Of a DNA stretch of 64,000 bases, positions 25,898-52,511 are shown piece by piece; the first letter of the stretch is position 1, and each line of letters starts with the position of its first letter. Source of the DNA: a virus; the IMG/VR virus record IMGVR_UViG_3300030108_003057, positions 1 through 64,000 of that record. One strand, 5' to 3'. The position numbers were made by a program, and so were the translations under genes. The notes under the pieces are model-generated. The model was not told the DNA's origin and did no database searches. It worked only from the letters and a program-made list of their open reading frames with translations.

Positions 25898-26065
25898 TTA
25901 TAAATCCTCTCCTTTAATACTTATGTGGAACATATAATATTTTAATGCTATATCTATACAATCATAACAATAAGATTTTCCATCACCATGCATATTATGA
26001 AACATTGTTTCTTTAACTTCTTTACAAACAAAACATTGTCCTGAGTGCATTTGTGGTAACTTCAT
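25898..26065 (-). CDS. Small zinc-finger protein (not in ORF track, 55 aa)
   Basis: Hand translation MKLPQMHSGQCFVC...YCYDCID...; start overlaps the upstream stop. Confidence 0.5.
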   Translation of the reverse strand: MKLPQMHSGQCFVCKEVKETMFHNMHGDGKSYCYDCIDIALKYYMFHISIKGEDL

Positions 26066-26247
26066 TCTTCTTCACCCACAACAGCCCAATTTTTATAATG
26101 TCTGCTATTAATATTCATTATTTTACCATTTTCCCATCGAACTTTTGCTATTTCCATAGGCTGTCCTCTCATGTATATCCAAGTAACATCTACTACTGTT
26201 GCTAGTTTCCCTGTCTTATTATGTTTAATTCTATCTCCGACTATCAT
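26062..26247 (-). CDS. Small SH3/KOW-like protein
   Basis: VGDRIKH..TGKLATVVDV...KVRWENG. Confidence 0.5.
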   Translation of the reverse strand: MIVGDRIKHNKTGKLATVVDVTWIYMRGQPMEIAKVRWENGKIMNINSRHYKNWAVVGEEE

Positions 26248-26438
26248 TCCTCATCACCATCATTTGTTTCTTTATCAGATAACTTCCAATACTTTTTTAA
26301 CATTTCTCCTGTTCTAGTACCCCACCAACCGGGGTGGGTATTATACCATTCTAGGTTATGTTGTCTTAAAATTTCAACTTCCTCTTTTTGTCTACTTAAT
26401 ATTCTTTCGGGCGTTTTAATCTTCTTTTTCTTCACCAT
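26244..26438 (-). CDS. Hypothetical protein
   Basis: Coupled ORF. Confidence 0.5.
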   Translation of the reverse strand: MVKKKKIKTPERILSRQKEEVEILRQHNLEWYNTHPGWWGTRTGEMLKKYWKLSDKETNDGDEE

Positions 26439-26643
26439 TTAATTTTGCCTCCATATTTACTATTATAGTTTGCCATTGATACCAATTTATTTTATTATTA
26501 GGTGGTCCACCAAAGTAATCTGAGTTGAACCACATAAAATATGCTTCTTTTGTGCTACATTCACTACAAATGTTTGTAGAGTTATCAAATCTACTAAGAC
26601 CGTAGGTACTTTTTACTTCTTCATTACACAATGGACAAATCAA
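26416..26643 (-). CDS. Small zinc-finger protein
   Basis: CPLC...LSRFDNSTNICSEC. Confidence 0.6.
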   Translation of the reverse strand: MICPLCNEEVKSTYGLSRFDNSTNICSECSTKEAYFMWFNSDYFGGPPNNKINWYQWQTIIVNMEAKLNGEEKED

Positions 26644-28160
26644 TTAAGCATCTCCTTAACCGACTTAAACTCCGTCGGCGTTTCCTTATCAGTACGGAGT
26701 CTTATGAATCTTGGGAATCTAAGTCCAATATTACCATCCTTATCTGAGGTAATAATATCTGCATGTATTTCCATTATAGTATTATCATTATTATCATAAT
26801 ACTCATGAACTATATCTAAGTCTGTATCTGTAAATCCTGTACCAACAGAACCTATGCTGACTATTTCATTTTCTATCATTACTCCCAGTTCATATGAACC
26901 ATAAACTCCTGCTCTTTTACCTGTACCCATTGTTGCATCTAATACTATACAGTCTAAATCAACTAATGCGGGTTTATGCTTTAACCATGAACGCTTTCCG
27001 GGTTCATATATTTGGTTTGCCTTCTTTAGTACTAAACCTTCATAGCCTGCTTTAATAGCATTAGTATATTCTTTACGAATTGCTTCTTCCCCACTAACTA
27101 ACTTAGTTTCAGTAATATTAACATTAGGAAAATGCATTTGTAATGTTTCTAATCTAGTTCCATACCCAAACGAATAGGTATCTTGCCCGTTATATGTAAG
27201 AATATCAAAAACGATGGCTTTAATCGCTACACGATTTCTTACTGCTTCTGTCTTACCATGAATACGTGGCATTATTTCTTTAAATTCTAGAACATTACCT
27301 TCTTCATCTACTGGGACAATTTCCCCATCAAGAATAAACCAATCAAATTCATCGCCCCAAGATTCTACATTAAGGTCTGCAAACTTATCAGTTATATTAT
27401 CACCTTTTCTATTAAAAATCATTACAGAGCCATCTTGTGTTCTGTGAAACTGAGCGCGAATACCATCATACTTTACGTCAGCATAATATTCACCTTTCAA
27501 ACTTTTAGCAGTTTTTGCTAACTGAGGCTTAATATAACTTCCGGGTGTAGGTACTAGTAAATCTCCAACACCCCATCCGTCTGTAACTTTATCAATTATT
27601 GTGTCTAACTTATTAAACTTAATAGCAGTATTAAAGTCAGATGTTTTGATGCCATATTTTTTAGGTAAAGACTTCTTAGTTACATTTTCACCTGCACCGT
27701 TTCTAGTTTGATTTACAATAATCGCCGTAAACCACTTTCTTTCTAAGCCATTCATTCGTTGAAAATAGTCCATGAATACGCTTCTAGCATTTACTATGTC
27801 TGGTTGTGATAATACATCATTAAATATAGTAATGTCTAATCCTTCACTTTCGCTATTAATGGACCATTCATAAACAAATTCTGGAAATCCTCCGCAATCG
27901 TCCACTAGGTCATTCAAGCCAAAATCGTCCAATCCGTAGTAATTTGCTACATGATTTAATAGATTCTTTGGTCCTAAACCAGTTGAACTAAAGTGTCCAG
28001 TTAATGCTAAAAAGAAATTCTTCCAATCTTTTCCTATATCTTCATCAGCAACAATATTATTTATCATTTCTGTTGGGGTCATATTACAATATGATTCCAT
28101 TTTTTGAGCAAAATCACTCATCTTCATCTTCATCACCGCCCAAAGGTGGGTATGTATCAA
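26640..28160 (-). CDS. lig: ATP-dependent DNA ligase
   Basis: KYDGIRAQ (motif I), ILDGEI, FDIL, EGLVLK, WLKHK, LRFPRF. The true start may be slightly downstream (MKMKMSDF). Confidence 0.92.
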   Translation of the reverse strand: MIHTHLWAVMKMKMSDFAQKMESYCNMTPTEMINNIVADEDIGKDWKNFFLALTGHFSSTGLGPKNLLNHVANYYGLDDFGLNDLVDDCGGFPEFVYEWSINSESEGLDITIFNDVLSQPDIVNARSVFMDYFQRMNGLERKWFTAIIVNQTRNGAGENVTKKSLPKKYGIKTSDFNTAIKFNKLDTIIDKVTDGWGVGDLLVPTPGSYIKPQLAKTAKSLKGEYYADVKYDGIRAQFHRTQDGSVMIFNRKGDNITDKFADLNVESWGDEFDWFILDGEIVPVDEEGNVLEFKEIMPRIHGKTEAVRNRVAIKAIVFDILTYNGQDTYSFGYGTRLETLQMHFPNVNITETKLVSGEEAIRKEYTNAIKAGYEGLVLKKANQIYEPGKRSWLKHKPALVDLDCIVLDATMGTGKRAGVYGSYELGVMIENEIVSIGSVGTGFTDTDLDIVHEYYDNNDNTIMEIHADIITSDKDGNIGLRFPRFIRLRTDKETPTEFKSVKEMLN

Positions 28161-28359
28161 TAATAGTTAAGTATGCTAAATCAACATGACTTACATCTAT
28201 TCTTTCAAAATCTGTCTTAGAATATTCGACAGTCTTACTAATCAATAAACCCATCAGGTCCATTGTTCTATTTGCTATTCTTTCCCTAGCACTAGCCTTA
28301 ACTTGTCTATTAGGGATAACTTTCTTAATCATTCTTTTTACTTCTCTTTCGCTAACCAT
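28114..28359 (-). CDS. Archaeal histone-fold protein with acidic tail
   Basis: 'VKRMIK...RQVKASARERIA....L.....VEYSK...RIDVSHVDLA' parallels HMf-type 'RIIK..GAERVS..A...LA...A...GRKTIKAEDIELA'. Confidence 0.65.
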   Translation of the reverse strand: MVSEREVKRMIKKVIPNRQVKASARERIANRTMDLMGLLISKTVEYSKTDFERIDVSHVDLAYLTIIDTYPPLGGDEDEDE

Positions 28360-28724
28360 TTTTCCATCTCCTTTTTATTATAAAAATATTTTATTATTTT
28401 ATTACTTAAGTCAGTAATAATAAATACAACTCCCATTATACAATTTATTGATATTACCTGATACTTGCCAGACACTTTATATGTTTCAACTGAAGGACTT
28501 ATTCCTTTCAACCTACTACTTTCAAAAGATACTCTTTGAGCATTTTGTGTTATCCATTGTATAATATGTGGTTCTTGTACTTCAACCCATACATATCCAT
28601 CTAGTTCCAATTCTCCAGTTCGATTGCATACATTACATTCTTTACCATCACAGATTGGACATTTTATATACTGAACATTTACGGGAAATCTAACAGTATT
28701 TACTCTTCCTCCGATGTTAGACAT
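28338..28724 (-). CDS. Zinc-finger protein
   Basis: CPICDG.ECNVCNRTG. Confidence 0.55.
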   Translation of the reverse strand: MSNIGGRVNTVRFPVNVQYIKCPICDGKECNVCNRTGELELDGYVWVEVQEPHIIQWITQNAQRVSFESSRLKGISPSVETYKVSGKYQVISINCIMGVVFIITDLSNKIIKYFYNKKEMEKWLAKEK

Positions 28725-29173
28725 ATATCCTCAGTCCTCGATAAATACTCTTCACCTTCTTGTATATACCAACGCATTCTTTGGTTTTTACCAAGTACAA
28801 TTGCTTCATTAAGAATTGGTTTTTGAGTATTAATTGTCTTCCAATCAGTCCCACTAAAATAAGCATGACCAAATGGATGAGTATGAATCCAACACCTAAG
28901 AGGTAGTTTCATACCCTTTACTTTTTCATTTTTGTAGTCTACGAAACTTCCTGTCCCTTTACTAATAAATAAATTAAAGTCAGCGTCAACAATTACACTT
29001 ACCTCTAGTTCGGTAAGATATTCCGTTGATACTTCCCAAATCATATCTAAAAAGTACGGGTCATAAAAACTCGCGTCGCATAAATCAAAGGCTTCATTTA
29101 TTAAAGCCTTACACATATCCCAATCACAATTAGGGTGTACTATACCCCTATCCTTATATTCTAATTCTTCCAT
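28700..29173 (-). CDS. JAB/JAMM/MPN+ metalloprotease
   Basis: Upstream Glu (LEVSV) plus WIHTHP-x5-FS-x2-D, the JAMM ExnHxHx7Sx2D signature. Confidence 0.85.
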   Translation of the reverse strand: MEELEYKDRGIVHPNCDWDMCKALINEAFDLCDASFYDPYFLDMIWEVSTEYLTELEVSVIVDADFNLFISKGTGSFVDYKNEKVKGMKLPLRCWIHTHPFGHAYFSGTDWKTINTQKPILNEAIVLGKNQRMRWYIQEGEEYLSRTEDICLTSEEE

Positions 29174-29242
29174 TTATTCTTCCTCCTTATTATTTTCATA
29201 AAACTTAAACCCAAATTCTTCTAATGTTGTTTGTCTATACAT
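29174..29242 (-). CDS. 22-aa micro-ORF consisting of a PIP-box-like motif
   Basis: MYRQTTLEEFGFKFYENNKEEE; AGGTGG RBS upstream; stop abuts the JAB start codon. Confidence 0.55.
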   Translation of the reverse strand: MYRQTTLEEFGFKFYENNKEEE

Positions 29243-29243
29243 T

Positions 29244-29333
29244 CTACCACCTACATTGACTACATTCATGTTTACTTGATGTTAAATCTAAATGTAGATA
29301 AAATGCACATACTCCACATAGTCTTTCTTCCAT
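29244..29333 (-). CDS. 29-aa zinc-ribbon micro-protein
   Basis: MEERLCGVCAFYLHLDLTSSKHECSQCRW; GGGTGA RBS; fills the gap after the E1 gene. Confidence 0.55.
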   Translation of the reverse strand: MEERLCGVCAFYLHLDLTSSKHECSQCRW

Positions 29334-29337
29334 TTAA

Positions 29338-29910
29338 TCACCCATTATAAGTTGCGTGTTTCTTTACGTCTTCACCATTAAACCATCTTTGAGTCCATTG
29401 TGCTCCATATCCGGCTGCTACTACTTGCATAAAGTGAACACCAGAACTATCTCCTTCCCATGCGTTACCTTGGCAACTAAAAGAACCTTCTGGTCCAGCA
29501 GTAAATGATGAATATAATTCTGCTCTTTCTAATGAAGAAATCATAGCGGCATTTCTACCTTGTGCTCTTAAATCTAACCACTTTATTTTATCAGAACTAT
29601 ATAGTGTTCTTCTAATTGCTAGATTATCAGCACAACATATAACTAAATCATATCCTTTAACCTGCTTACTTGTTAATACCTTGTATGGTTGTGCCTTTAC
29701 TGAACTATATCTATCAGCCATAACATCAACCTTTAACTTTTCAATATCACCTTCATCAAAATTTTGATAGGTTATATTTTTAATCTCTACTACATCAGGG
29801 TCGTATACTGTAATATTATAGAGACCTGTCTTATCTAAAAGTGGAATAAGAAAACTTCCAATTCCACCTGCTCCAATTATCATAATCTTTCTTTTACTTT
29901 TCTTTCCCAT
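29338..29910 (-). CDS. E1/ThiF-family adenylyltransferase
   Basis: IIGAGGIGS, YDPDVVEIKNITYQ, DLVICCADN..IRR, WLDLR, candidate catalytic Cys in SFSCQ. Confidence 0.88.
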   Translation of the reverse strand: MGKKSKRKIMIIGAGGIGSFLIPLLDKTGLYNITVYDPDVVEIKNITYQNFDEGDIEKLKVDVMADRYSSVKAQPYKVLTSKQVKGYDLVICCADNLAIRRTLYSSDKIKWLDLRAQGRNAAMISSLERAELYSSFTAGPEGSFSCQGNAWEGDSSGVHFMQVVAAGYGAQWTQRWFNGEDVKKHATYNG

Positions 29911-30544
29911 TTCTAATCACCTTTAAATGTCTTTTCAAGCGAGGGAGACTAACTCCCATTTTTTCACAGACTTGTGCTTGAGTCAAATCTGAATACTCAT
30001 AAAGTATCGCTGCCATGATACTTCTTGTAATAGTATAATTACTACCTAAACTATCTAAGAATAACTTACCTTCCTCAGATAATTCTGTAATATCCGGCAA
30101 ACCAATACGGTAATTTTCTCTTCCAAAAATACCGACCTTATGATAATGTTGTTTAATTCTTTTATTTATTTTAAACATTTTATTTTTATTTACTCCCATA
30201 AATGCACATATCTTATGTATATTATATTCAGCATTTGATTGTGATAAGGTATAGTAAGTTACCGCGCAAAAAGCAGTAATTTCATCTACTCTATTAAATA
30301 CTAATGCAACTTTTAATGTATTATAATTTCTAATAATATCATTACGATAATTACGTAAATTAAATTCATTTAATAATATATCGAGAGGTGCAAAATCACG
30401 ATTTGCCGCAACTTGGTTTTCGTTCTTTTCCCCACGTATAGTTAATATTCGTGATACTGCAAGCAACCCACAATCCTCACATTCATGTAAGTTAATTTCA
30501 TGTATATATTTTAGATTAGTACTATTACAATTTTCGCATGGCAT
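29894..30544 (-). CDS. Transcription factor B (TFB/TFIIB) homolog
   Basis: N-terminal zinc ribbon CENC...ECEDCG, cyclin-like helices, C-terminal HTH 'LTQAQVCEKMGVS...LKR'. Confidence 0.72.
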   Translation of the reverse strand: MPCENCNSTNLKYIHEINLHECEDCGLLAVSRILTIRGEKNENQVAANRDFAPLDILLNEFNLRNYRNDIIRNYNTLKVALVFNRVDEITAFCAVTYYTLSQSNAEYNIHKICAFMGVNKNKMFKINKRIKQHYHKVGIFGRENYRIGLPDITELSEEGKLFLDSLGSNYTITRSIMAAILYEYSDLTQAQVCEKMGVSLPRLKRHLKVIRNGKEK

Positions 30545-30545
30545 T

Positions 30546-31721
30546 TTATATCAACACTCTACCTGCATTTATGTTACCTGTATCTTTAGTAATGTGTTCT
30601 AGGTGCGTTCTTACAGTAGAAACATATGTCCCTAATACATGGTCATTCATTACTGCCATAGCGCGAGCAGCATATTGGTCACCTTTAGAAGCACCACTCA
30701 TCATATTATCAATACAAATTGGTCCTCTTAGTTGTAGGTTAGTCTTTTCTGCACTCTTTAGTTTATTTAACTTTACTAAATCATGATTTCCACCACTGTT
30801 CCCACCAGAATAAACCATATATGTAGATACATCTTGATAGCCTCGCTTCATACCATTATCAGCAATAATCCAATCTGTTAATTTACCCTTAACAAGTAGA
30901 GCATCTTGTTCCTTATCTTCCTTTTTAGTCTTAAACTTAATAACTGATATTTGTTCATAGTTATCGGATAAGCCTTTCAACAATTGCATGGCTCTTTTCT
31001 CGACGGCATCAGATTGCCTATTTTGAGTCATGAATGCTTTCATTACTTTTGCTTGGGAATCAGTAACTCTAGTTTCATTTAGAACGAATACTAATTCTTC
31101 AGGACTGATAGCATAAAATTTACCTCTACGATTGTCTTTTAGATAACTATTAGTAAAGTGTCTTAAGTCCTTTAGGGATATATCATACCAATAAGCATCA
31201 TTAAGTTCTAAGGCAAAATCTTCTGGACCAATCTGAGCAACATTTAATCTACAAGTCTTGAGTTTATTATCATCGTCTATAAACTTATAAGGTACTCTAT
31301 TTTCTAACACGTAAGATAATTCTGCTGGCATCTTAACACATCTATGAAAATAATCCCATAATTGTTTGTGACCTTCGGCATCATTATTAATATATATTGA
31401 CCGAAGTAATACCCTTGTAATATTATTTAATATATCATTTATTGTTAAAGTAATATTATTTAATTCATATCTTCTACTGTTTCTAGAAATCAACATACCA
31501 AACCCCTTTACAAAAAATAATAATTGACCGTCACCTTGATTTTTTGCTGGCATTAATATTCTTCTATTTACGACTTCTCTAAGTGCTACAAAGGTAGAAT
31601 CAAGTCCAGTGCTAGTACTTCTTCTATTAGCATAAACAGTAAAAGTTCCATCTAGCCCTTCGATTTCAATATTAACATGACTCATACTATCACTAGCATG
31701 TCTAATTCTTATCGTCATCAT
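30546..31721 (-). CDS. Hypothetical protein with C-terminal 'GPICID...GDQYAARAMAVMND' cysteine motif (possible E2-like)
   Basis: ORF track; the functional call is speculative and rests on the motif and the neighbouring E1/JAB genes. Confidence 0.5.
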   Translation of the reverse strand: MMTIRIRHASDSMSHVNIEIEGLDGTFTVYANRRSTSTGLDSTFVALREVVNRRILMPAKNQGDGQLLFFVKGFGMLISRNSRRYELNNITLTINDILNNITRVLLRSIYINNDAEGHKQLWDYFHRCVKMPAELSYVLENRVPYKFIDDDNKLKTCRLNVAQIGPEDFALELNDAYWYDISLKDLRHFTNSYLKDNRRGKFYAISPEELVFVLNETRVTDSQAKVMKAFMTQNRQSDAVEKRAMQLLKGLSDNYEQISVIKFKTKKEDKEQDALLVKGKLTDWIIADNGMKRGYQDVSTYMVYSGGNSGGNHDLVKLNKLKSAEKTNLQLRGPICIDNMMSGASKGDQYAARAMAVMNDHVLGTYVSTVRTHLEHITKDTGNINAGRVLI

Positions 31722-31972
31722 TATATATTTTCCTCCATAGTTATCTGCTCCATTAGAACACCGTCACATAAATCATTTAACTTCTCAGCCAAACTCTCAC
31801 ATATTCCGGGAATAGTTTTTCTTTGTAGACCTAACCAAACTTTATGTTGTACATTTAACACTACAACAGGATTAAGTCCTTCACCCTCATCATACTTGAT
31901 AATTATAGGTGGTAGTTCTTCATCATTTACCATTCTGAATTCTACCATCTTTTTAGTTCTTGGAGACATCAT
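31721..31972 (-). CDS. Hypothetical protein
   Basis: Coupled ORF. Confidence 0.6.
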   Translation of the reverse strand: MMSPRTKKMVEFRMVNDEELPPIIIKYDEGEGLNPVVVLNVQHKVWLGLQRKTIPGICESLAEKLNDLCDGVLMEQITMEENI

Positions 31973-32256
31973 TCTTTCACTTCCGGCTTTGGACCCATTT
32001 TGATAACTTGTCTACTAACAATAACATGAGGAAACTTCTCAATCAACAAAGGCATAATCTCATTCCAATTAATATCTCCTTCGTATTGTTTAGTCCACAC
32101 ACTACCGTTTGTCTTTAGAGAAGTCATACGAACTACAACTTTTTCATCAGTTACTGTTCCTACGTCTTTCAATACCGCCAAACTATCTGCGTCTATATTC
32201 AATCCACCGTTCTGCATTTTCATCATTTCTTCTATATTCATTTTTTTCACTTCCAA
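31969..32256 (-). CDS. Hypothetical protein
   Basis: Coupled ORF. Confidence 0.55.
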   Translation of the reverse strand: MEVKKMNIEEMMKMQNGGLNIDADSLAVLKDVGTVTDEKVVVRMTSLKTNGSVWTKQYEGDINWNEIMPLLIEKFPHVIVSRQVIKMGPKPEVKE

Positions 32257-32271
32257 TTTTTTTGCAGGTTA

Positions 32272-34131
32272 TTATATTTCACAAGCCCCACCTGCACAAG
32301 CGATTTCACCGCTTAGGTCTGTGTTGTCCTTTTGTTCGACTACATTTCTTAAGTCTACCGATTTTAATGACTCCATCATCTCACGAAATTTAAGGACATT
32401 CGTGGACTCAAAAGGAGCCTGTATATATGTTCCACCATCATAAGGTAAAACTGAAAGACCGTTATACGACTTTCTATTATTCCACATCCATTCACCAACA
32501 TCCTCCCATTCATTTTCACGAATAGAAACTGTTGCTGAAACATTATGAGTATTCATACCATCTCGGTGTCCAGTATTAACCCAATTTTCTGCGAACCATT
32601 TTACTCTTTCTAATAAAGAAATAGCAGGTTCAGTTCTTAGTGTTGCACCATCTGGTGCGCGTTGAGGAATACTAATAACTGCTTCAAGATGTGGCTTGAA
32701 GTGGTCATCCTCAATTAATTCTTTATGGTTTCTAGCCAAATAATCATAAATGGCTTCACTCTTTCCTACTCTAACTCTTCTAATATAGTGTTTATCATGC
32801 CATGCGTGAATACCGCTACTTGTACCTAATACAAGTGAAGTAGTTCCCGCAGGTTTAACACAAGTTAGTCTGGCGGCTTTATTAATTCCTATTTCTTCTG
32901 CAACTCTTATATTTACTGCTTTAACATGTTTTGCCGCCATTTTTACATCTAAACTCTTTAATTTATTAGATGCAATCCCCGTCATTGATACGCCAACTAA
33001 CGCATCCTTTTCTGTTGTTTGCTTCCATACATCTCTAAGATAATGGAAATCTGTATACCCTGCTTGTAATGTTCCAACAAATGCTGCCGCTTTAACTCTA
33101 TTGTTTAGGTCATGTTGACTTTCTACATTTGAAACATTTACTTCTGTTAGATTACAGAACTGATAAGGTCTTAACGCAATCTCGCAACATGGGTTAGTTC
33201 CCCAATCCTTATCATTTGAAAAGTATAATCCCGGTTCACCCGAACCTGAATCTTGTATTTTTTGCCATAGTTCTTTAAAAAATGCCTTTCTAACTCTACT
33301 ACGAATTAGAACTGCACTATTATTTGCTCGGCCTCTTTGTGGGTTTTGTTCCCACCATGCTCCACTCTTACATGAAATCATATCATCATCATCAGCACTA
33401 AATAAACTAATTAATGCTGCTCTACGAATTCCACCTGCTAATACTGAATCAGCAATGAGACACATAATATCATGTGCTTCAATGGTGGATAATTTACTAC
33501 CATGTTCCTTTTCAGATAAAATGTTCTCTATTTTTACAAGACATTCTCTTAAAGGAGTTGGACCGGGTGCTCGACCACCAGATGTTTTAAGTAATTCACC
33601 CTTTGGTCTAATATCTGAATAATCAAACACTGGAGTTGTTTTATATCCTCCAAAATATGACTTCATCAATGCTTTAATTGAATCAGCCCAACCTTCTATA
33701 CTATCACCAATTAAATATCTTCTAGTTCTTTTAGAAGGTTTTGATATTTCAGGTAATTGTGCTACATGATGTTTTTGTACTGAATAACCGACTCCGGTTC
33801 CTCCTAACAATAAAAACATAGCCTCCCAAAAAGAATCAATACAATCAATCGGCATATATGCACAATTGTAAACTCTATTTGGACTAACTTCAATTGGTTT
33901 ACCTGCAAATTGCATACTTCGCATTGAAGGTAATACTTTCTTAGTTAATACAAACTGAGTGTATACATCTTTTATCTCATCTTTCAATTGAGGATATTTT
34001 TTCATATGCATTTCACAATTTCTATTACAAATCTCCTCCCATGTTTCTCTCCTAAACTTATCTGGCTTAAACTTGGCATATTTCATATGCACAATTATAT
34101 CACTTAATATTTCTTGACTTATTTCCATCAT
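32272..34131 (-). CDS. nrdJ: Class II (B12-dependent) ribonucleotide reductase
   Basis: RRETWEE, LPSMR, NCAY, GGIRRAALI, TNPCCEI, FCNL, VKPAGT, C-terminal CAGGAC; no small-subunit gene present. Confidence 0.92.
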   Translation of the reverse strand: MMEISQEILSDIIVHMKYAKFKPDKFRRETWEEICNRNCEMHMKKYPQLKDEIKDVYTQFVLTKKVLPSMRSMQFAGKPIEVSPNRVYNCAYMPIDCIDSFWEAMFLLLGGTGVGYSVQKHHVAQLPEISKPSKRTRRYLIGDSIEGWADSIKALMKSYFGGYKTTPVFDYSDIRPKGELLKTSGGRAPGPTPLRECLVKIENILSEKEHGSKLSTIEAHDIMCLIADSVLAGGIRRAALISLFSADDDDMISCKSGAWWEQNPQRGRANNSAVLIRSRVRKAFFKELWQKIQDSGSGEPGLYFSNDKDWGTNPCCEIALRPYQFCNLTEVNVSNVESQHDLNNRVKAAAFVGTLQAGYTDFHYLRDVWKQTTEKDALVGVSMTGIASNKLKSLDVKMAAKHVKAVNIRVAEEIGINKAARLTCVKPAGTTSLVLGTSSGIHAWHDKHYIRRVRVGKSEAIYDYLARNHKELIEDDHFKPHLEAVISIPQRAPDGATLRTEPAISLLERVKWFAENWVNTGHRDGMNTHNVSATVSIRENEWEDVGEWMWNNRKSYNGLSVLPYDGGTYIQAPFESTNVLKFREMMESLKSVDLRNVVEQKDNTDLSGEIACAGGACEI

Positions 34132-34550
34132 AATTCCCCCATCAGGTTATCAATCTCTTTAATAAGATTGCCATTTTGTACTAATATCCAAGACCTTACT
34201 TCAATCCATTCAAAATCTTTCCAGTCTTTTAGTATTTCCCATCCATTTTTATTTATACAATTCCAAATACTATTATATTCTACCTTCTTGTAGGTAAAAA
34301 CTAAGTCTCCACAACTTACCAATTCTTTGTTTTTAGTACCGCGACCTATTATTATTCCCTCGTCATAAAAGTTAGGGTCAAGGGTTACTAGGTCGGTACC
34401 ATTAAAATGATTATGAAACTCATAAAGTTTTCTATAACCAACTGGTCTAAGTTTATAAAGTTTGATTAGTTCATCTGCTACATAATCAGTAGTAATATAA
34501 TTTTTTAGGTGTTCCAAATCATTTTCTTTAAGATATTCACTTATTAACAT
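34128..34550 (-). CDS. Hypothetical protein
   Basis: Likely start MLISEYLK at 34550. Confidence 0.55.
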   Translation of the reverse strand: MLISEYLKENDLEHLKNYITTDYVADELIKLYKLRPVGYRKLYEFHNHFNGTDLVTLDPNFYDEGIIIGRGTKNKELVSCGDLVFTYKKVEYNSIWNCINKNGWEILKDWKDFEWIEVRSWILVQNGNLIKEIDNLMGEL

Positions 34551-35097
34551 ATATTTTCTCCGTAAATAGTTGATGTGTTGTTGGCATCCAATCCGGTCTA
34601 CCGTCATTTCTCCACGTTGCGAATTTCCATTTATCAATTCTATAATATTCTTTGTATGCTTCTATCGTACAGGGAAATAATTCCTCGTCTAATAGATGCG
34701 GATATATATTTTTCTTGATTGCTCTAACAAATGGTGTTAGACCTTGCTTTGGAAAGTCTGCTTCTTCTAACCAATCAAACACATCTTTTGATAATTCAGT
34801 CATTAGTCTTTCGACCTTGTGTTGTTTTTTGTATCTATCTGTATATTCCTCACAAATTGTCCAAGTATTTTTCCATGTCCAAATAAAATTGTCTTTGGAT
34901 TCTCTAGCCCAAATAGTGGAAGGGTGTTTAGCCATACCTCTACTCATTCTTTTCCAAGGAATATTTTTTTGATAATTTAACTCATGCAAATTGTGGCAGA
35001 TAATTTGTAATCCCTCAGTTGGCATCTTAACTACGTGTTTATCACATAGTTGTCTAGCCGCTAATACTGGGTCTTCATGTAAAAAGAATATATTCAT
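34537..35097 (-). CDS. Pyrimidine-dimer DNA glycosylase-like (DenV-related) protein
   Basis: MNIFFL..DP..AA...CDKHVVKM..E..Q, HPSTIW, EEY..RY.K.H, AY..YY...K. Confidence 0.75.
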   Translation of the reverse strand: MNIFFLHEDPVLAARQLCDKHVVKMPTEGLQIICHNLHELNYQKNIPWKRMSRGMAKHPSTIWARESKDNFIWTWKNTWTICEEYTDRYKKQHKVERLMTELSKDVFDWLEEADFPKQGLTPFVRAIKKNIYPHLLDEELFPCTIEAYKEYYRIDKWKFATWRNDGRPDWMPTTHQLFTEKIYVNK

Positions 35098-35174
35098 TCT
35101 TCACACCTCTTACAATTACCAATTCTATACCAGTGTCCGCATTTTTCGCATTGACTAGGTATTGCTCCACACAT
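35094..35174 (-). CDS. 26-aa cysteine-rich micro-protein (not in ORF track)
   Basis: MCGAIPSQCEKCGHWYRIGNCKRCEE; AGGAGG RBS; stop overlaps the next start. Confidence 0.45.
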   Translation of the reverse strand: MCGAIPSQCEKCGHWYRIGNCKRCEE

Positions 35175-35250
35175 TTAACCCATCCTCCTTGAACAAGTTA
35201 TACAGTAATCACTGTAAGTACTAAATCTTGGGTTCATACAGTTTTTTCTT

Positions 35251-35436
35251 CTACAAATCTTCATCTGTAAAACCATCCTTTGTAAATCCACTAATCATTT
35301 CTTCGCTTGCCTCCTTAACTTTAGTATTTCGCTCTACTTGTTTCATCCATAAAACAAATGCTCTTGAGTGAAATCGCCAAATAAAGAATAATAATACTTT
35401 ATATAATAATTTATAATCCATAAGTATCATCCTCAC
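35251..35436 (-). CDS. Small hypothetical protein
   Basis: ORF track. Confidence 0.45.
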   Translation of the reverse strand: MRMILMDYKLLYKVLLFFIWRFHSRAFVLWMKQVERNTKVKEASEEMISGFTKDGFTDEDL

Positions 35437-35698
35437 ATGATTTATCTCTCCATTCTTGAAGTATGTCTAGTAACTGCTCAGAAGTTAAACAATAATCATC
35501 TAATAGTTCTTCAGTTCCAAACCTTCCAGTGTTGGAGTAAAATTCTAACCACAATTTATTATCATCACGAGATATTTCACAAACAATCTCTTCTTTTTCT
35601 GAATGTGGGAAATTACAATCAGAGTTAGTGCATTCAACACCATCATCTTCTGCTCTAACTAATTTCCATTCACATCTAGGACATTCCATGTATGCCAT
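35411..35698 (-). CDS. Zinc-ribbon protein
   Basis: CPRC...CTNSDC. Confidence 0.55.
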   Translation of the reverse strand: MAYMECPRCEWKLVRAEDDGVECTNSDCNFPHSEKEEIVCEISRDDNKLWLEFYSNTGRFGTEELLDDYCLTSEQLLDILQEWRDKSCEDDTYGL

Positions 35699-35844
35699 TT
35701 ACTTTTCCTCCTGTATTTTACTAATTACGAATCCACATTTAGGACACGCAATTCCTCTTTCTGCTGCTTCTTGACTATGTTTAACAGTGCAAGCCAGCCA
35801 TTTTGTATAGTTTTCATATAAATTATTCCATCGTTCTTCTGCAT

Positions 35845-36153
35845 TCATTCTATTTTCCTCCACATTAATTGTCTTGAGCCACTATCAACTCTTGATACCC
35901 AACCGCCATCTTTCTTTAAGGCTCTTGAGATAAATTGACTCATGGCTAAAGTGTTTCCTCTATATTTAGCAACGTGTCTATTTACCGCAGCGGTTCTTGT
36001 TGTTTTACAAAGTAGTTTGTAATATTCATCTAATACTTCATCCATTATTAAATTAGTACATACTTCTTCGTGTCTATTTGATACTGTAAGTACTGCTTCT
36101 ACCATTACTTTCCAGTCTGCACTTGTTCTTCTTTTTTGTTTTCTTTTTCTCAT
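35845..36153 (-). CDS. Putative winged-helix DNA-binding protein
   Basis: Basic; helix-helix-wing pattern ending 'WVSRVD...LMWRK'. Confidence 0.5.
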   Translation of the reverse strand: MRKRKQKRRTSADWKVMVEAVLTVSNRHEEVCTNLIMDEVLDEYYKLLCKTTRTAAVNRHVAKYRGNTLAMSQFISRALKKDGGWVSRVDSGSRQLMWRKIE

Positions 36154-36356
36154 TACAGAATCCTCCTACTTACACTATCTGCTTTTTCATAAGAATATCC
36201 CTGTTCTCGCAAACTTTTAAATAATTTTATTCGGGATAATTCTTTTCCGACAGTTCTATCTAAGTATACTTTAGTATAAACTCTTAAATCATTAGCAGTA
36301 GCATGTTTTCTAATAGTATCTGTTTTTGGTAATTTTTTAAGTTTTTCTAAATTCAT
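36153..36356 (-). CDS. Small basic hypothetical protein
   Basis: Coupled ORF. Confidence 0.5.
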   Translation of the reverse strand: MNLEKLKKLPKTDTIRKHATANDLRVYTKVYLDRTVGKELSRIKLFKSLREQGYSYEKADSVSRRIL

Positions 36357-36688
36357 CTATCATCACCTTCACCTTTCAGTGTATTGTTTTCCATTCTTTT
36401 CTGAATCTTCTCTATGTTTAACCTAGCCACTTTATCTAACTTAACATTAAGTTCGTTTGCTAGATTAGCAAGATACCATAATACATCACCTAATTCACGA
36501 ATCAACGCTTCTTTATAATGTATTGGGTATGTATTCTGTAATGACCCAGAATCCCTTATGTGCTTCTTTATCTTTTCAGCAACTTCTCCTGCTTCGCCAC
36601 ATAAACCTAAAGTAAGATACAATAGGCTATTATCAGTGGGGAATATAGCAGTTTTGCTTGCTGTTCTTTGATAATGGTTCATATCCAT
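36353..36688 (-). CDS. MazG-like NTP pyrophosphohydrolase
   Basis: GLCGEAGEVAEKIKK..RD, ELGDVLWY, NIEK...R, GEGDDR; start moved to MDMNHYQ. Confidence 0.88.
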   Translation of the reverse strand: MDMNHYQRTASKTAIFPTDNSLLYLTLGLCGEAGEVAEKIKKHIRDSGSLQNTYPIHYKEALIRELGDVLWYLANLANELNVKLDKVARLNIEKIQKRMENNTLKGEGDDR

Positions 36689-36981
36689 TATTCTTCCTCC
36701 GATAAATATACTAAGTCCGCCAATGCCAACGCCGCACTTATTGGCATACAATCTGGGTCACTAAGATATAAATTCATAGAAAATGTTCTTTCTACATATT
36801 CACATATAGAACCAGTTTGCATATCGGTATATTGTATTGTATTTTCATAGTAATATCTACCGTTTCTATACTTAATATAGAATTGACTACCATCAACTAG
36901 ATTTCCTTCAATCTGAGTTGGTGCTGCTTCACTTGTTACTTTAAAACTTTTTATTTTTATTTCTTTCTTCATTTTTTTCAC
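36688..36981 (-). CDS. Hypothetical protein
   Basis: ORF track. Confidence 0.55.
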   Translation of the reverse strand: MKKMKKEIKIKSFKVTSEAAPTQIEGNLVDGSQFYIKYRNGRYYYENTIQYTDMQTGSICEYVERTFSMNLYLSDPDCMPISAALALADLVYLSEEE

Positions 36982-37026
36982 TTCCTTTTGAGTTTTTTAC
37001 AGAGAACTCTAACTCTATTTAATAGG

Positions 37027-37108
37027 TGCAGGTAGTAGGATTTGAACCTACGAAACATTATGTAATGGGACTTAAGCCCATCGCCTTTGACCACTCGGCT
37101 ATACCTGC
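37027..37108 (-). tRNA. tRNA-Leu(UAA)
   Basis: Reverse complement GCAGGTATAGCCGAGTGGTCAAAGGCGATGGGCTTAAGTCCCAT...GTAGGTTCAAATCCTACTACCTGCA: acceptor stem, D loop, anticodon TAA, long variable arm, TTC loop; no encoded CCA. Confidence 0.93.
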
Positions 37109-37301
37109 TTATTTTTTTAATTCTTTTTTTATCCAGACAACTATTCTATGTCCGATAACAAATATAACAAAATATACCGCTAATTCTACTGCTAAAGCCG
37201 CCAATAAATATTTATCTGAAACACATTCGGTATTACCCAAAACTGTCGTACAGACTTCAATGGTAGCCACACAGTAGATTAACTATGCGTTATATTTTAA
37301 G

Positions 37302-37679
37302 TTATTCTTTTTGGGAATCCCAGACAACATTGTAATGTTCACAATAGTTAACTAAGGTTTGCCAATCTTCATCCATATCGATTCTATATTCATATCTCAA
37401 TATTGGTAATGCGCCATTTACAAAATCATCTAGTATGTATCTAGCACCTTCATCAGAAATATTATTAGCGATTGCTGATTCAAACTGATACACAAACGCA
37501 CCCAATAATCCATATTTATTTACTAAATCATCAGTATATTTCTCTATTTTACGCACAAATCTTCTTTCCTTGAAACCTTTCGATGCGTCAACGGTAATTG
37601 CTTTTAATATGTCTAATATAAGTTTAAACATATTATTCACCTTTAAATTCTTTAAATCGCTTTCTATATAAAAAAGCAA
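37302..37679 (-). CDS. Hypothetical protein
   Basis: ORF track; probable start MFKLILD near 37631. Confidence 0.55.
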   Translation of the reverse strand: MLFYIESDLKNLKVNNMFKLILDILKAITVDASKGFKERRFVRKIEKYTDDLVNKYGLLGAFVYQFESAIANNISDEGARYILDDFVNGALPILRYEYRIDMDEDWQTLVNYCEHYNVVWDSQKE

Positions 37680-38040
37680 ACATGTGTTTTTTAAACTTAG
37701 TCGTTGGTGCGTGCATTTGTTGTTTAATCCAAGAATTCATTTTTGCTACTTTAGTTTCGTCATTTATTAATGCCAACTTAGGGATAGCCTCACCTCTTTT
37801 ATTTAATATAATAGTTCCATCCTTTTCCTTATGAACAATTAAACGACCATCTTCACCATATTGTCTATCAACACCATTTTCTAATTCGGTAATCTTATCT
37901 TTAATTCTTTGTGGTGAATCTGCTCCACCTACATATCTTCTTAATCTATAATCATATCTTTGCTGGCATTCTTCATGAATGTCGCTTAATAATAAAAATT
38001 CTTTATATCCATTCCAATCTTGTTTTTTTCTCCAAGTCAT
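37633..38040 (-). CDS. Hypothetical basic protein
   Basis: ORF track, RBS GGAGAG. Confidence 0.6.
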   Translation of the reverse strand: MTWRKKQDWNGYKEFLLLSDIHEECQQRYDYRLRRYVGGADSPQRIKDKITELENGVDRQYGEDGRLIVHKEKDGTIILNKRGEAIPKLALINDETKVAKMNSWIKQQMHAPTTKFKKHMFAFLYRKRFKEFKGE

Positions 38041-38170
38041 TTTATCTCTCCATTTAAAATAATTAAATCTTATGTGTAAAACCCGGTTCTTGCCGCTTGG
38101 TTCTACATGAATTTCCAGTTTTGTTCACCCAGACTGGAAACTGGGCCAAAATGTTAACTTAATTTTAGTC

Positions 38171-38383
38171 CTAACAACCGCCAACGATGGCTTGCGTTAG
38201 AACTACTTCATTTACATCATTAAAGTTGATGTTCGCAATTTCTTCACGGGAAACAAGTTCACCGTCAATGTATGCCCAATGAGTAGGATGCTCAATAATT
38301 TGCTCCAATGCCCCTTCAGCACTCATTGATAGTTCGGTATGACCTGTTTCATTTAGTATTGTTACCTTTACCATTTTACTCAC
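38171..38383 (-). CDS. Ubiquitin-like (beta-grasp) protein ending GG-C
   Basis: 70 aa; beta-hairpin, helix, 'AYIDGELV', final strand 'EVVLTQAIVGG' plus one extra Cys (codons GGC GGT TGT TAG). Confidence 0.72.
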   Translation of the reverse strand: MSKMVKVTILNETGHTELSMSAEGALEQIIEHPTHWAYIDGELVSREEIANINFNDVNEVVLTQAIVGGC

Positions 38384-38547
38384 TCTCCATAATCTCTACT
38401 TTTCCTAATTGTACTCTTAGTTCTGATATATTCATCTTCTTCACTTCCTTTTTTACGTAAGCCCGTCGGCAATATTAACAACGACTATGTTCTATATAAC
38501 CGTTGTTGGATTAGTTTTTCATTAACATTTTGGGTATGTTATTTGAG

Positions 38548-38787
38548 TCATATTGGGTCATTTCTTTTACTTCGCCAATGCCAAGTCTCCCGACCCCTCA
38601 ATATAAAAATATCATCGAATTTTACTTCATTTTTCTTATAATTATATTGTGCTTCGCCTACTTCGTAAGCCCAGTCATCCCAATCTTTAATTAATCGCTT
38701 TACAATAGCAAGTCTTTTCCGATTGTGGATATTTTCGATTATCTCCCCTTTTTTAAATTTAGGTTCTTTCATTTGTATCTCTCCCAA
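38548..38787 (-). CDS. Small SH3-like hypothetical protein
   Basis: PKFKKGEII motif. Confidence 0.5.
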   Translation of the reverse strand: MGEIQMKEPKFKKGEIIENIHNRKRLAIVKRLIKDWDDWAYEVGEAQYNYKKNEVKFDDIFILRGRETWHWRSKRNDPI

Positions 38788-39011
38788 CGTCTTTTCTGTA
38801 TTTCCTTCTGTAAATTATCAGAAGTTGCGAGTAGCACCAATGCGAAGGGTAGTCCCAACATTGCGAACAATAATAGATTCGTATTAAAAGATACCCCTAA
38901 AAGTAGCCCTGCAAAACCTAATATTATACATATTCTATGCAATAATCGCAAATATTCGTATGTTTCCTTTAATTCGCCGTCACTTAATTTTTCTACATTA
39001 ATTTTCATCAT
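38769..39011 (-). CDS. Small two-TM membrane protein
   Basis: Two hydrophobic segments. Confidence 0.55.
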   Translation of the reverse strand: MMKINVEKLSDGELKETYEYLRLLHRICIILGFAGLLLGVSFNTNLLLFAMLGLPFALVLLATSDNLQKEIQKRRWERYK

Positions 39012-39280
39012 TCTTCATCCCTATGTGCTACCAACCATAATACACAATATCCTGCCAAGTCCAAATATATATCTTCATCACTTTCAATTGTTTCATTACC
39101 TGTTGCTAATCTTGAAATCTTATCATCCATTCTAACAGCAATCAATTCCTTCGCGCTCCCATTCGCAAATATCCCAATTGGGTTCAACGCTGAGTCTCCA
39201 TACTGTTCATTCTTCATTAATAACATTTCGGTTAATTCTTTCATAATATCTTTTATTTTCTTTGCTGTATTTTTGGTCAT
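39008..39280 (-). CDS. DUF1599/Nmad1-like nucleotide-modification-associated protein
   Basis: KNEQYGDSALNP...VRMDDKISRL...DLAGYCVL. Confidence 0.75.
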   Translation of the reverse strand: MTKNTAKKIKDIMKELTEMLLMKNEQYGDSALNPIGIFANGSAKELIAVRMDDKISRLATGNETIESDEDIYLDLAGYCVLWLVAHRDEE

Positions 39281-47615: not shown

Positions 47616-47616
47616 T

Positions 47617-48168
47617 ATGTGGTGGGATATAATTAAGTCGGATGACCTGCATAAAGATTTTAAATTTAGACAAGGTAAACCTTGGAGAGTAAGATTTTTA
47701 ATGTGGGCGGGTAATAAAATTAATCATCTTCTTGGTGGTCCACCTAAACAATTTCTTATGTTAGGTGGTTATCAACCAAAAACCGGAGAGGCAGATGCAT
47801 ATTTAGATGATATAAAAGAGTATCGTAAAAGATATGGTGGGACATATACAGAAATAATAACAGACATATTAACTCACGAATATGTTCATAAAGTATTAAC
47901 CGAAGACCCCGAAATAAATAAACTATTAAAACCATATAGAAAACATAGATTTGACCCTTTGGCTGTTTCTGCTCAAGAATGGGCAGCAAACCAAATGTCT
48001 ACTACTAGTGAATTACAAGCATTATATAATTTATTACAACACCCAGCAGTTCCACAATCTACAAAAATCAGGGCTGAAGAAAAAATAGACAGGGTATATA
48101 CAATTAAAGAAAAAGTAGAAGATGAGGTAGAGACATTCCTACAAGAAAACCCAGTGGAGGAACAATAA
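47617..48168 (+). CDS. HExxH zincin-like protein with MWWDIIK tag
   Basis: 'DILTHEYVH' followed by a downstream Glu (AQEWAA). Confidence 0.6.
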   Translation: MWWDIIKSDDLHKDFKFRQGKPWRVRFLMWAGNKINHLLGGPPKQFLMLGGYQPKTGEADAYLDDIKEYRKRYGGTYTEIITDILTHEYVHKVLTEDPEINKLLKPYRKHRFDPLAVSAQEWAANQMSTTSELQALYNLLQHPAVPQSTKIRAEEKIDRVYTIKEKVEDEVETFLQENPVEEQ

Positions 48169-49007
48169 TGTGGTGGGATATAATTAAATCAAAATGGGTA
48201 GATAATCTATCCGAGAAAAAGAAAAAGATATTAGAACATAAACCATCTTTTGAAGTAGATGTTCCTAAAATGTCTTACCCTGATGATGAAAAGGAAATAA
48301 AGGAAGTCATTAAAATTATGAAAGATAAACCAGTCCCTAAAAAAATAATGGATAAAAATGATAAGGATGCCGATACATTGATGTATGGTATTGTAGGTGC
48401 GAAAGCCGCAGACTATAAAGATTTTAAAATGGATTTAGACTCTTATGTTATGCAAGAGAAAATGAAATATGAAAGACCTAGACCAAATGAAAGTTCTAAG
48501 TTAAGTGAAACTAAAACCAAAACAGATGATACTCCGGCTTTTCCGTCGGGTCATGCTACTTTAGTATATGCTTTAGAAAAAATATTGGGTGCAAAACATC
48601 CTAATAAATCTGATGAATTAAGTAAGATGGCGGAAATGTTAGCATTGGCTAGAGTTCAAATGGGTTCTCATTATCCTTCTGATATTGAGGCAGGTAAAAA
48701 ATTAGGTTATCTTATTGCTAAAGAATATTTAAAAATTAATAAGGCTAAAATAAAAGCACATATGCCCACACTAAGACAGGCTCTAAAAGAAATAGACCTA
48801 CCTGAAAGATTTACCTTAGCGGAAATTAAACAACCGTTAAGAGAAAAATATATTGAGTTAAGACAAGATGAGGTAGACGGCTATCAATTAAGAAGAGAAT
48901 TAGCAAAATTAGATAGAAGTCATGTTTCTATTGTTCCTAGAATTCTAAATAGTATGCGTATTTATTCTAATGAAACTCGTGGCGGTCTTGCATTATTTAG
49001 AAGGTGA
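48168..49007 (+). CDS. PAP2/acid phosphatase-haloperoxidase family protein with C-terminal wHTH-like domain and MWWDIIK tag
   Basis: KMKYERPRP, PAFPSGHA, ARVQMGSHYPSD. Confidence 0.85.
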   Translation: MWWDIIKSKWVDNLSEKKKKILEHKPSFEVDVPKMSYPDDEKEIKEVIKIMKDKPVPKKIMDKNDKDADTLMYGIVGAKAADYKDFKMDLDSYVMQEKMKYERPRPNESSKLSETKTKTDDTPAFPSGHATLVYALEKILGAKHPNKSDELSKMAEMLALARVQMGSHYPSDIEAGKKLGYLIAKEYLKINKAKIKAHMPTLRQALKEIDLPERFTLAEIKQPLREKYIELRQDEVDGYQLRRELAKLDRSHVSIVPRILNSMRIYSNETRGGLALFRR

Positions 49008-49011
49008 AGTA

Positions 49012-50241: not shown

Positions 50242-50307
50242 TTAGAAATGTTTATTAATAAATAAGCATTACATTAGTAATGTTAATAAGACTATGAAGT
50301 GTTTAAC

Positions 50308-51957: not shown

Positions 51958-51962
51958 TTAAT

Positions 51963-52511
51963 ATGGGATGGTTTGATATATTAAAGAAATTAACTCGTGA
52001 TGAAATGGGTCAAGTTAGACCATATATTAAGGATGAGTTAGAAGAAGGTAAAAAGAGAATAAGAAGTGTCCGTAATCGGTATCGCTATAAATTAGGTAGG
52101 GAGCCAACAGAAGAGGAATTACGAGAAGAATTATCTAAACCTCCTAAAGTTAAAAGACCGAGAGGCGGGCAGCGTAAAATGCGACCTAAGATTAGGGACC
52201 ACCCCGCATATAGAAGATTAATAGCACGGTTTAGACGAGAGGGCCAAAACAGAGTACCCACCGAAGAAGAATTACGACAAGAAATATCTAATCCAACAAA
52301 ACTTTTAGCAGGAAGACAAAAAAGAGTGCCGCCACAACGAGCAGAAAGATTTGAATTATTTGATAATATTAAATTATATTTAGAATCTCAAAATATAACC
52401 CCTACTGTTATGAACATTTTAGAAGAACTTAGTGATTCCGATAAAACTAATCGTGAAAAAGATATAAATGATATTGGTGAATATTTAAGAACACAGAGGA
52501 TGAGTGATTAA
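51963..52511 (+). CDS. Basic protein with MGWFDILK tag and an internal 'R.PTEEELR.E.S.P' repeat
   Basis: The repeat occurs twice, with a degenerate third copy. Confidence 0.65.
   Translation: MGWFDILKKLTRDEMGQVRPYIKDELEEGKKRIRSVRNRYRYKLGREPTEEELREELSKPPKVKRPRGGQRKMRPKIRDHPAYRRLIARFRREGQNRVPTEEELRQEISNPTKLLAGRQKRVPPQRAERFELFDNIKLYLESQNITPTVMNILEELSDSDKTNREKDINDIGEYLRTQRMSD

Follow-up and report, generated by a model that had tools for sequence, protein, structure and literature searches.

A stretch of viral DNA of 64,000 nucleotides (positions 1 to 64,000 of IMG/VR record IMGVR_UViG_3300030108_003057, hereafter the window) appears, on balance, to encode a minimal ubiquitin-like protein-conjugation module, as judged from sequence comparisons and structural models. 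Its parts, all of them small, are a ubiquitin-like protein (Ubl) made as a precursor, a short E1-like adenylating enzyme, a JAMM/MPN+ metalloprotease (JAB) and p391, a conserved neighbour whose C-terminal domain is a candidate carrier (E2). The Ubl, E1 and JAB genes form a real and conserved gene module. These parts, the conservation of their catalytic residues, their co-occurrence and the fusions among their host relatives are seen directly in the sequences; the folds and the docking of the Ubl on the E1 are predicted.

The window fits a magrovirus-like archaeal tailed virus infecting Marine Group II archaea (Poseidoniales), since its gene content, the relatives of its family B polymerase and those of its E1 all agree with this assignment. 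The closest annotated relatives of the polymerase are found in tailed haloarchaeal viruses, at ~24% identity. Relatives of the E1 occur on metagenomic contigs of ~90 kb, and one of them is labelled 'putative ThiF family protein [Prokaryotic dsDNA virus sp.]'.

The viral comparison set consists of 80 related IMG/VR loci, found through the E1. The JAB gene lies downstream of E1 in all 78 loci that have downstream sequence, and the Ubl gene lies upstream of E1 in all 53 with enough flank, so that the co-occurrence of the three genes across magroviruses, proposed in a preliminary description of the window, is borne out wherever the flanks suffice. The 27 loci without a Ubl match end short of the position that the Ubl gene occupies in their nearest relatives. 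The usual order is Ubl, (ribonucleotide reductase), p391, (zinc-ribbon/helix-turn-helix protein), E1 and JAB, and a p391 homolog stands between Ubl and E1 in 70 of the 80 loci. The distance from Ubl to E1 is 2.7-3.6 kb in many viral loci and 8 kb in the window. The JAB gene had been placed three genes downstream of E1, but it is the very next gene: the spacer is 164 bp long and the largest open reading frame (ORF) inside it has 22 codons.

The Ubl was initially given as an ORF of 70 codons ending in IVGG and a single Cys. The ORF and its ending stand, and only the length is revised, more likely to 67 residues. The ATG at 38374 is the likely start: GGAG lies upstream of it, and a start there agrees with orthologs beginning MVK or MIK. 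The C-terminus in the window is AIVGG followed by one Cys that would need removal. The GG is conserved as had been expected, with (I/V)VGG present in every one of the 44 distinct orthologs that the 53 loci yield, and the motifs NETGHT and HPTHW are also invariant. The residues after GG number between 0 and 10 and show no conservation (C, SE, NY, QY, SL or none), and 8 of the 44 distinct sequences stop exactly at GG. In BilA a conserved Gly is followed by up to nine non-conserved residues, which the JAB protein BilC has been shown experimentally to trim (PMC10557695). On the same grounds as for BilA and BilC, the fixed GG and disposable tail of the viral Ubl are, at the level of sequence, the signature of a protease-cut precursor.

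The structural model of the Ubl has a predicted local distance difference test score (pLDDT) of 86.9, with 37 orthologs in the alignment, and shows the order beta-beta-alpha-beta-beta-(alpha)-beta. The 50 best matches returned by Foldseek from the PDB are all ubiquitin-like beta-grasp structures, and include ISG15, SUMO, NEDD8, Mth1743 and the Caldiarchaeum ubiquitin bound to an Rpn11 homolog. The scores (E from 3e-3, template modelling score ~0.45) are modest, as expected because there are only 70 residues, and the model agrees with the beta-grasp fold first suggested. VIA, a structure aligner independent of Foldseek, places MoaD first (Z 5.7) and lists ThiS, SAMP1 (2l52, Z 4.6), CysO and BilA (8tyz_B, Z 4.7). 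Among the viral models of BFVD, those that match the Ubl belong to ubiquitins of giant viruses and baculoviruses and to the Ubl domain of phage tail-tip proteins.

The E1 matches the Pfam family ThiF (PF00899) with an E-value of 6.4e-18 and 65.2 bits (cut-off 28.1), its residues 6-104 covering only positions 20-128 of the 238 in the profile. Inspection of the window had already picked out a ThiF/E1 with a GxGGxG loop, a candidate thioester Cys in SFSCQ and no CxxC pairs; the ORF, the Pfam match and the motifs all hold on closer analysis. The nucleotide loop, GAGGIGS, occupies residues 13-19 and is invariant in 22 of 22 family members, as is C146 of SFSCQ (codon 29473-29475). The only other cysteines are C92 and C93. 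Beside them, D95-N96 of CCADN aligns with DCTDN of MoeB and is invariant in the family, whose conserved blocks are GxGGIGS, DPDxVExKNxxYQN, CCxDN..R, LDLRAQGRN and GSFSCQG. The protein has no zinc CxxC pairs, no CYS domain and no rhodanese domain, and is thus not a full-length ThiF-type enzyme such as MoeB, ThiF or UbaA, which have a domain of ~240 residues with two zinc CxxC pairs. The short length is native, because all of the more than 770 clusters in the family are ~185 residues long. Matches of the E1 profile to PDB sequences end near residue 100. The best of these are 9egb, 9egc and 9egd, annotated as 'THIF-type NAD/FAD binding fold domain-containing protein' and not traceable to a paper, followed by MccB, UBA5, Uba1, Cap2, Uba4, MoeB and ThiF; TcdA is also among the best. 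In PADLOC the N-terminal half of the E1 matches Cap2-type E1-E2 models (2e-10), and no PADLOC model matches other parts.

The JAMM protease was likewise correctly located. Its E57, H97-x-H99, S107 and D110, which spell out the motif E...HxH-x7-S-xx-D, are invariant in 30 orthologs. The match to Pfam Prok-JAB (E 0.0028, 18 bits) is under the cut-off of 25, and the family profile matches the AMSH-type deubiquitinase AMSH-LP at 3.1e-4, in the motif region only. The JAB is predicted to trim the residue or residues after the GG of the Ubl, and possibly also strips the Ubl from targets. Overlapping the end of the JAB gene in the window is a gene for a protein of 128 residues (28338-28724, minus strand) that contains a CPxC...CxxC zinc knuckle. 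It is kept in 72 of the 80 loci, mostly 3-5 kb further on, near the ligase gene, and has no family match.

Prediction of an E1-Ubl complex, proposed at the outset as a check, gave a score of 0.64 for an E1 dimer with Ubl residues 1-69, compared with 0.01 for the best of three controls. A mark of 0.64 is reached by 58 of 80 solved complexes and by 2 of 110 mismatched pairs. The runs show at least 96% contact agreement, with a partner pLDDT of at least 83. In the model, G68 and G69 of the Ubl contact E1 residues 13-18 (the loop), 93-97 (CADN), 114-122 (LRAQGRN) and 142-146 (ending in Cys146), and D95-N96 sits within this contact. Both invariant motifs of the Ubl fall in the predicted E1 interface. 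The GG tail is accordingly placed by the model, as a prediction, in the nucleotide site of the E1; C146, whose segment contacts the Ubl tail, is a candidate site for the thioester. Complexes like that of MoeB and MoaD have already been solved, so the docking score shows a likeness to them and is not proof of binding.

The candidate carrier, p391, is a two-domain protein. Its N-terminal ~235 residues have no assigned function. In the model (pLDDT 79) residues 235-391 run from a helix through a beta-meander and a long loop bearing Cys336 to three helices, with Cys336 lying between the beta-meander and helix 346-358. Cys336 (codon 30714-30716) is invariant within a block of the form GPICIDN...GDQ..R...ND. 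Approximately 30 of 50 rows returned by VIA are E2, UEV or RWD chains aligned on this domain at Z 4-6.0, among them the Tsg101 UEV (Z 6.0), E2S (Z 5.6), UBC9, Ubc13, UbcH5b, Atg10, UFC1 and the E2 of African swine fever virus. The E2-like parts of Cap2 and BubCD also match (Z 4.4). Foldseek on the whole two-domain model returned only noise, and p391 has no usable match in the protein Atlas. The fold matches indicate that the C-terminal domain is a probable E2 carrier, and the role is put no higher than probable because Z scores of 4-6 are middling.

A second genomic setting is provided by the presumed hosts. A profile of the Ubl, run against 1.84 billion representatives, found 162 relatives, among them proteins with two or three head-to-tail units, each ending in VGG. 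Others (P0133, P0167) are Ubl-Ubl-E1 and Ubl-E1 fusions, in which one or two Ubl units are joined to a short E1 of the viral-type family. The fused E1s keep GAGGIGS, WLDLRCRG, PTSCQ (the S-C-Q Cys motif) and AAGAQW, the equivalent of C146 being retained as T-S-C-Q. Both the fusions and the poly-Ubl relatives come from Poseidoniales genomes, and scans of IMG/VR with the single proteins P0133 and P0122 found no loci. In three Poseidoniales loci a JAB gene directly follows the Ubl-Ubl-E1 gene and matches the viral JAB profile at 1e-21 to 1e-23. The neighbouring genes in these loci are cellular (ABC transporters, glycosyltransferases, GDP-mannose dehydratase, TYW1 and a phosphate transporter).

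The short E1 is present in 86 of 151 sampled Poseidoniales genomes. E1 and JAB share a neighbourhood in 8 of 8 host regions (contigs of 0.17-2.06 Mb): the two genes are adjacent or overlapping in six, one region (L108) has an E1-JAB fusion with a Ubl gene adjoining, and one (L109) has the order Ubl, JAB, gap, E1. Ubl genes of 1-3 units occur in 42 of 101 host genomes. In eight host poly-Ubl neighbourhoods (L110-L117, ~8100-9000) genes of 2-3 units lie directly upstream of the gene for the small subunit of replication factor C (RFC). The JGI label 'archaellum component FlaG' for poly-Ubl was rejected, as the neighbours (RFC, a flavoprotein, HIT and an acyltransferase) give it no support. Host genomes also encode a separate full-length ThiF/MoeB-type E1 (E ~1e-75, profile positions 1-235). 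The two kinds of fusion and the operon structure in this second setting tie the Ubl, E1 and JAB together. The Ubl-E1 and E1-JAB fusions, the poly-Ubl genes and the complex model with GG in the E1 site independently support the conjugation toolkit that the preliminary description had proposed.

Relatives of p391 are found in the hosts as well. ORFs of ~490 residues share its Cys motif and the following helix (hmmsearch 1e-5; hhalign probability 73%, E 3e-5), the common motif being (I/V)C(I/L)...LGDQxAAxALxLxxD. They occur as two paralogs per host genome (L092, L093, L094, L095; G001, G003), belong to no Pfam family and lie apart from the E1-JAB and Ubl genes. By sequence comparison, then, the C-terminal domain of p391 occurs beyond viruses, also in hosts. 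A conserved gene of 513 codons near the host poly-Ubl genes is unrelated to p391 and to the ~490-residue host protein.

Five further proteins (P0132, P0177, P0139, P0152 and P0170) consist of 1-2 Ubl units and a C-terminal domain of ~240-300 residues that belongs to no Pfam family, and members of these clusters occur on contigs of up to 2 Mb. These C-terminal domains might serve as built-in targets or act as additional enzymes in the host pathway. As relatives of the p391 Cys motif they were rejected (P0132/P0177, hhalign E 0.43; P0152/P0170, 0.042).

A maximum-likelihood tree of 20 viral and 14 host E1 domains places the two groups on opposite sides of a single long branch (support 100/100). 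The same split appears in the JAB tree, except for the long-branched host sequence of L109, which is nested among viral JABs. This locus (G106:C1:165500-184500, 9026-11501) has a JAB that matches the viral profile at 2e-40, and may be virus-derived DNA or a transfer. The contig also carries a second short E1 ~22 kb away. Because virus and host separate on a single 100/100 branch, the viral module is, as far as these trees indicate, an old and separate lineage, sister to the host system, and not a recent acquisition. It is probable that virus and host operate separate protein-tagging systems.

The conjugation module would work as follows; what we infer here covers the chemistry of each step, the carrier role of p391, the targets and the purpose. 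The beta-grasp protein would be made as a precursor, ending here in AIVGG-Cys, and the JAMM protease would cleave after GG. The 190-residue E1, probably a homodimer like MoeB and ThiF, would bind the Ubl and adenylate its terminal Gly with ATP, and the invariant Cys146 beside the active site would then accept the Ubl as a thioester. From there the Ubl would probably move to Cys336 of the E2-like domain of p391 and on to lysines of viral or host proteins, and the JAB may reverse the tagging. The tagging may serve takeover, degradation or counter-defence, the purposes suggested in the preliminary description. A more far-reaching version, which we consider improbable, is that virus and Poseidoniales run orthogonal versions of one minimal Ubl system, with the smallest known E1 (~185 residues) and a new type of E2; the virus version would tag defined proteins, and the host version would be an undescribed archaeal pathway. 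Candidate targets would then be 17 late proteins with an N-terminal MxWxx(I/L/V)(I/L/V)K tag, or host replication and transcription factors.

Several observations weigh against a conjugation module. The synteny found inside one virus group is weak evidence alone, which is why evidence was sought outside the group. The E1 lacks the C-terminal third of MoeB and ThiF and both CxxC pairs, and its Tyr48 aligns with the Arg of the SNLxRQ motif (MoeB, 9egc), so its activity may be less than full. This Tyr is invariant in viral E1s, whereas the same site carries His in the host Ubl-E1 fusions and Arg in 9egb, 9egc and 9egd. The Z scores of p391 are all below 8 and its model is weak around Cys336 (pLDDT 52-69). 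No HPN motif is present in the p391 consensus, and searches with a PDB-sequence profile, PADLOC and Pfam UQ_con/Prok-E2 (30 members) gave no match to an E2 family. No p391 homolog lies near E1 and JAB in the host loci examined. Finally, the proteins that VIA finds closest in structure to the Ubl include MoaD, ThiS and CysO, all sulfur carriers.

This last point also favours a different reading of the same genes, in which the Ubl becomes a thiocarboxylate and supplies the sulfur for a cofactor, a thiolated tRNA base or a modified nucleotide, and the JAB merely matures the carrier, as in QbsE/QbsD or CysO/Mec+. By Pfam the E1 belongs to the ThiF family, some of the host di-Ubl homologs carry the JGI name 'sulfur carrier protein ThiS', and the Cys that follows GG is reminiscent of the CysO-Cys adduct. 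Across the orthologs, however, this position is unconserved. The statement that the window holds no sulfur-acceptor enzymes also stands for the 40 ORFs scanned, a set covering all ORFs of at least 100 codons in the minus-strand block at 12-39 kb and part of the smaller plus-strand late ORFs: no ThiG, MoaE, Ncs6/TtuA, rhodanese or desulfurase family was found among them, although host enzymes could serve as acceptors. Head-to-tail poly-Ubl genes suit a modifier that is consumed better than a carrier that is recycled. With these points on both sides, a sulfur-carrier system seems to us improbable. We infer conjugation in preference to sulfur transfer; the E2-like fold of neighbouring p391 and the retention by the hosts of a separate canonical ThiF/MoeB-type E1 strengthen the preference.

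The widespread host system raises the question of whether the viral genes act mainly on it, with no virus-specific targets being tagged. The viral JAB might strip host Ubl, or the viral E1 and Ubl might compete with or poison the host pathway. The short E1 with JAB and the Ubl genes found across the host order would supply the object of such interference, Borg elements multiply JAMM 'deSAMPylases' (PMC12660748), and bacterial Bil systems, as cited in that paper, tag phage parts. We nevertheless regard interference as the main purpose as unlikely. All parts keep intact catalytic residues across the viral group, the long branch between viral and host E1s suggests separate specificities, and the invariant motifs of the viral Ubl lie in the interface predicted with the viral E1. 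The host cassette and poly-Ubl genes, moreover, sit among housekeeping genes (glycosyltransferases, TYW1, RFC), with no recognisable defence island. A functional link between Ubl and E1 would be absent altogether if the short E1 adenylated a peptide or an RNA base, as do MccB, PaaA and TcdA. The missing C-terminal region, the presence of MccB and TcdA among the best PDB sequence matches of the E1 and the 8-kb gap in the window are in keeping with this. The existence of Ubl-E1 fusions in the same E1 family, the shorter spacing in many viral loci and a complex model that scores far above its controls, with GG in the nucleotide site, make it very improbable. The conjugation module thus remains the reading that we prefer.

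Table 1. Coordinates of the module genes and the intervening gene in the window, with the basis for each assignment
Feature	Position	Strand	Basis or remark
JAMM/MPN+ metalloprotease (JAB), 157 aa	28700..29173	minus	Invariant catalytic set; AMSH-LP profile match
Minimal E1-like adenylating enzyme, 190 aa	29338..29910	minus	Pfam ThiF; invariant motifs
Zinc-ribbon and helix-turn-helix protein, 216 aa	29894..30544	minus	Weak helix-turn-helix Pfam matches only
p391, 391 aa	30546..31721	minus	Conserved neighbour; candidate carrier (E2)
E2/UEV/RWD-like C-terminal domain of p391 (residues ~235-391)	30546-31019	minus	VIA fold matches
Ubiquitin-like precursor (pro-Ubl), 67-70 aa	38171..38383	minus	Beta-grasp model; conserved GG

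The zinc-ribbon/helix-turn-helix gene separates p391 from E1, with which it shares 17 nucleotides (Table 1). Only 26 of the 80 loci have a homolog (tblastn), so it is no constant component of the module. The window as a whole has a GC content of ~32%. Genes of DNA metabolism occupy the minus strand from 12 to 39 kb, and encode the family B polymerase, an ATP-dependent ligase, a class II ribonucleotide reductase, MazG, a DenV-like glycosylase, ERCC4, and PD-(D/E)XK and HNH nucleases. The plus-strand genes from 45 kb onward look like a late module.

Many ORFs of the replication block (26062-39280, minus strand) have a short acidic C-terminal tail, such as ...TSEEE (JAB), ...GGDEDEDE, ...LSEEE, ...HRDEE, ...VGEEE and ...DGDEE. 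These tails probably arise where the purine-rich ribosome-binding site of the overlapping gene that follows is translated as Glu and Asp codons. A second recurrent feature is found at the N-terminus of 17 plus-strand ORFs, at positions 10668-11301 and 45231-59542, which start with MxWxx(I/L/V/F)(I/L/V/F)xK (e.g. MSWRNILK, MWWDIIK and MSWENIVK). On the minus strand the pattern has a single spurious match, of 10 codons. It is conceivable that the fixed Lys makes these 17 late proteins acceptors of the Ubl, and a nucleotide-level signal or a targeting peptide is an equally possible explanation of the tag.

The literature searched contains nothing that combines magroviruses with ThiF or ubiquitin, and no description of the viral module. 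The main text of the magrovirus papers makes no mention of ThiF, JAB or ubiquitin, their supplementary tables lying outside the search; Poseidoniales and 'ubiquitin-like' together retrieve only work on AP endonuclease, and an overview of jumbo phages lists no such system. GenBank already carries a 'ThiF family' label for the E1. What this analysis adds is the system's counterpart in the hosts, including its fusions and poly-Ubl genes, together with the split between virus and host in the trees and the p391 relatives encoded by hosts.

No archaea are more abundant in the surface ocean than the hosts of magroviruses, which themselves rank among the commonest viruses of these archaea; virus and host are both uncultured. 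If the conjugation module is real, a complete viral Ubl kit would be a new route by which an archaeal virus seizes a cell; such kits have so far been seen as bacterial anti-phage defences, as cellular archaeal systems and, in Borgs, as a protease-only strategy. An E1 of 190 residues would show how small an enzyme can be and still activate a Ubl. In Poseidoniales, the poly-Ubl, Ubl-E1 and E1-JAB forms of the host counterpart point to an unstudied modification pathway, and the poly-Ubl genes bear on the origin of polyubiquitin-style precursors.

Among known systems, the MoeB-MoaD and ThiF-ThiS pairs have in common with the viral E1 and Ubl a nucleotide loop, an Asp and a GG tail that enters the adenylation site. 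However, no MoaE or ThiG was found here, the viral E1 has no CxxC pairs and is ~60 residues shorter, and the host lineage of the module has poly-Ubl forms and JAB fusions, unlike these pairs. The Bub system and the CBASS proteins Cap2 and Cap3 (PMC11601596; PDB 7to3, 9eav) are, as here, diverged prokaryotic sets of E1, E2 and peptidase, and Bub Ubls also occur as multi-domain precursors. Bub forms oxyesters and has no catalytic Cys (PMC11601596), whereas the viral E1 and p391 each have an invariant one. Cap2 is an E2-E1 fusion that conjugates a cGAS-like enzyme, with no free Ubl.

Two of the systems compared are archaeal. The Borgs (PMC12660748) resemble the viral module in being an archaeal mobile element that deploys JAMM proteases against ubiquitin-like modification. 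They multiply the protease, just one of them has a SAMP, and the E1 comes from the host (PMC12660748), whereas magroviruses carry Ubl, E1, protease and a probable E2 together. The SAMP/UbaA/HvJAMM1 system of Haloferax (PMC2948915, PMC4443979) has, like the viral module, a small beta-grasp protein ending in GG, an E1 of the MoeB/ThiF type and a JAMM protease. UbaA, however, is a full-length MoeB-like E1 that acts without an E2 and also serves in sulfur transfer (PMC2948915, PMC4443979). The viral E1 is truncated and has no CxxC pairs, and the E2-like p391 is its conserved neighbour, so that the module does not belong to this system.

By analogy, the viral module would work most like BilABCD, which consists of the Ubl BilA, the E2 BilB, the JAB BilC and the E1 BilD (PMC10557695) and so has the same four roles. 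BilB has a long loop between strand beta4 and its Cys, a counterpart of the long and poorly modelled stretch that precedes Cys336 in the model of p391. The module is not a member of BilABCD, because BilD is a large E1 with IAD, AAD and CYS domains and a zinc site (PMC10557695), whereas the viral E1 is a single domain of 190 residues with neither, and because the gene order differs, being bilA-B-C-D in the one and Ubl ... p391, (zinc-ribbon/helix-turn-helix), E1, JAB in the other. The viral carrier is also a two-domain protein of 391 residues without sequence similarity to BilB. Finally, BilABCD is a defence operon of bacteria, whereas the viral module is found in an archaeal virus, and has a paralog in the host.

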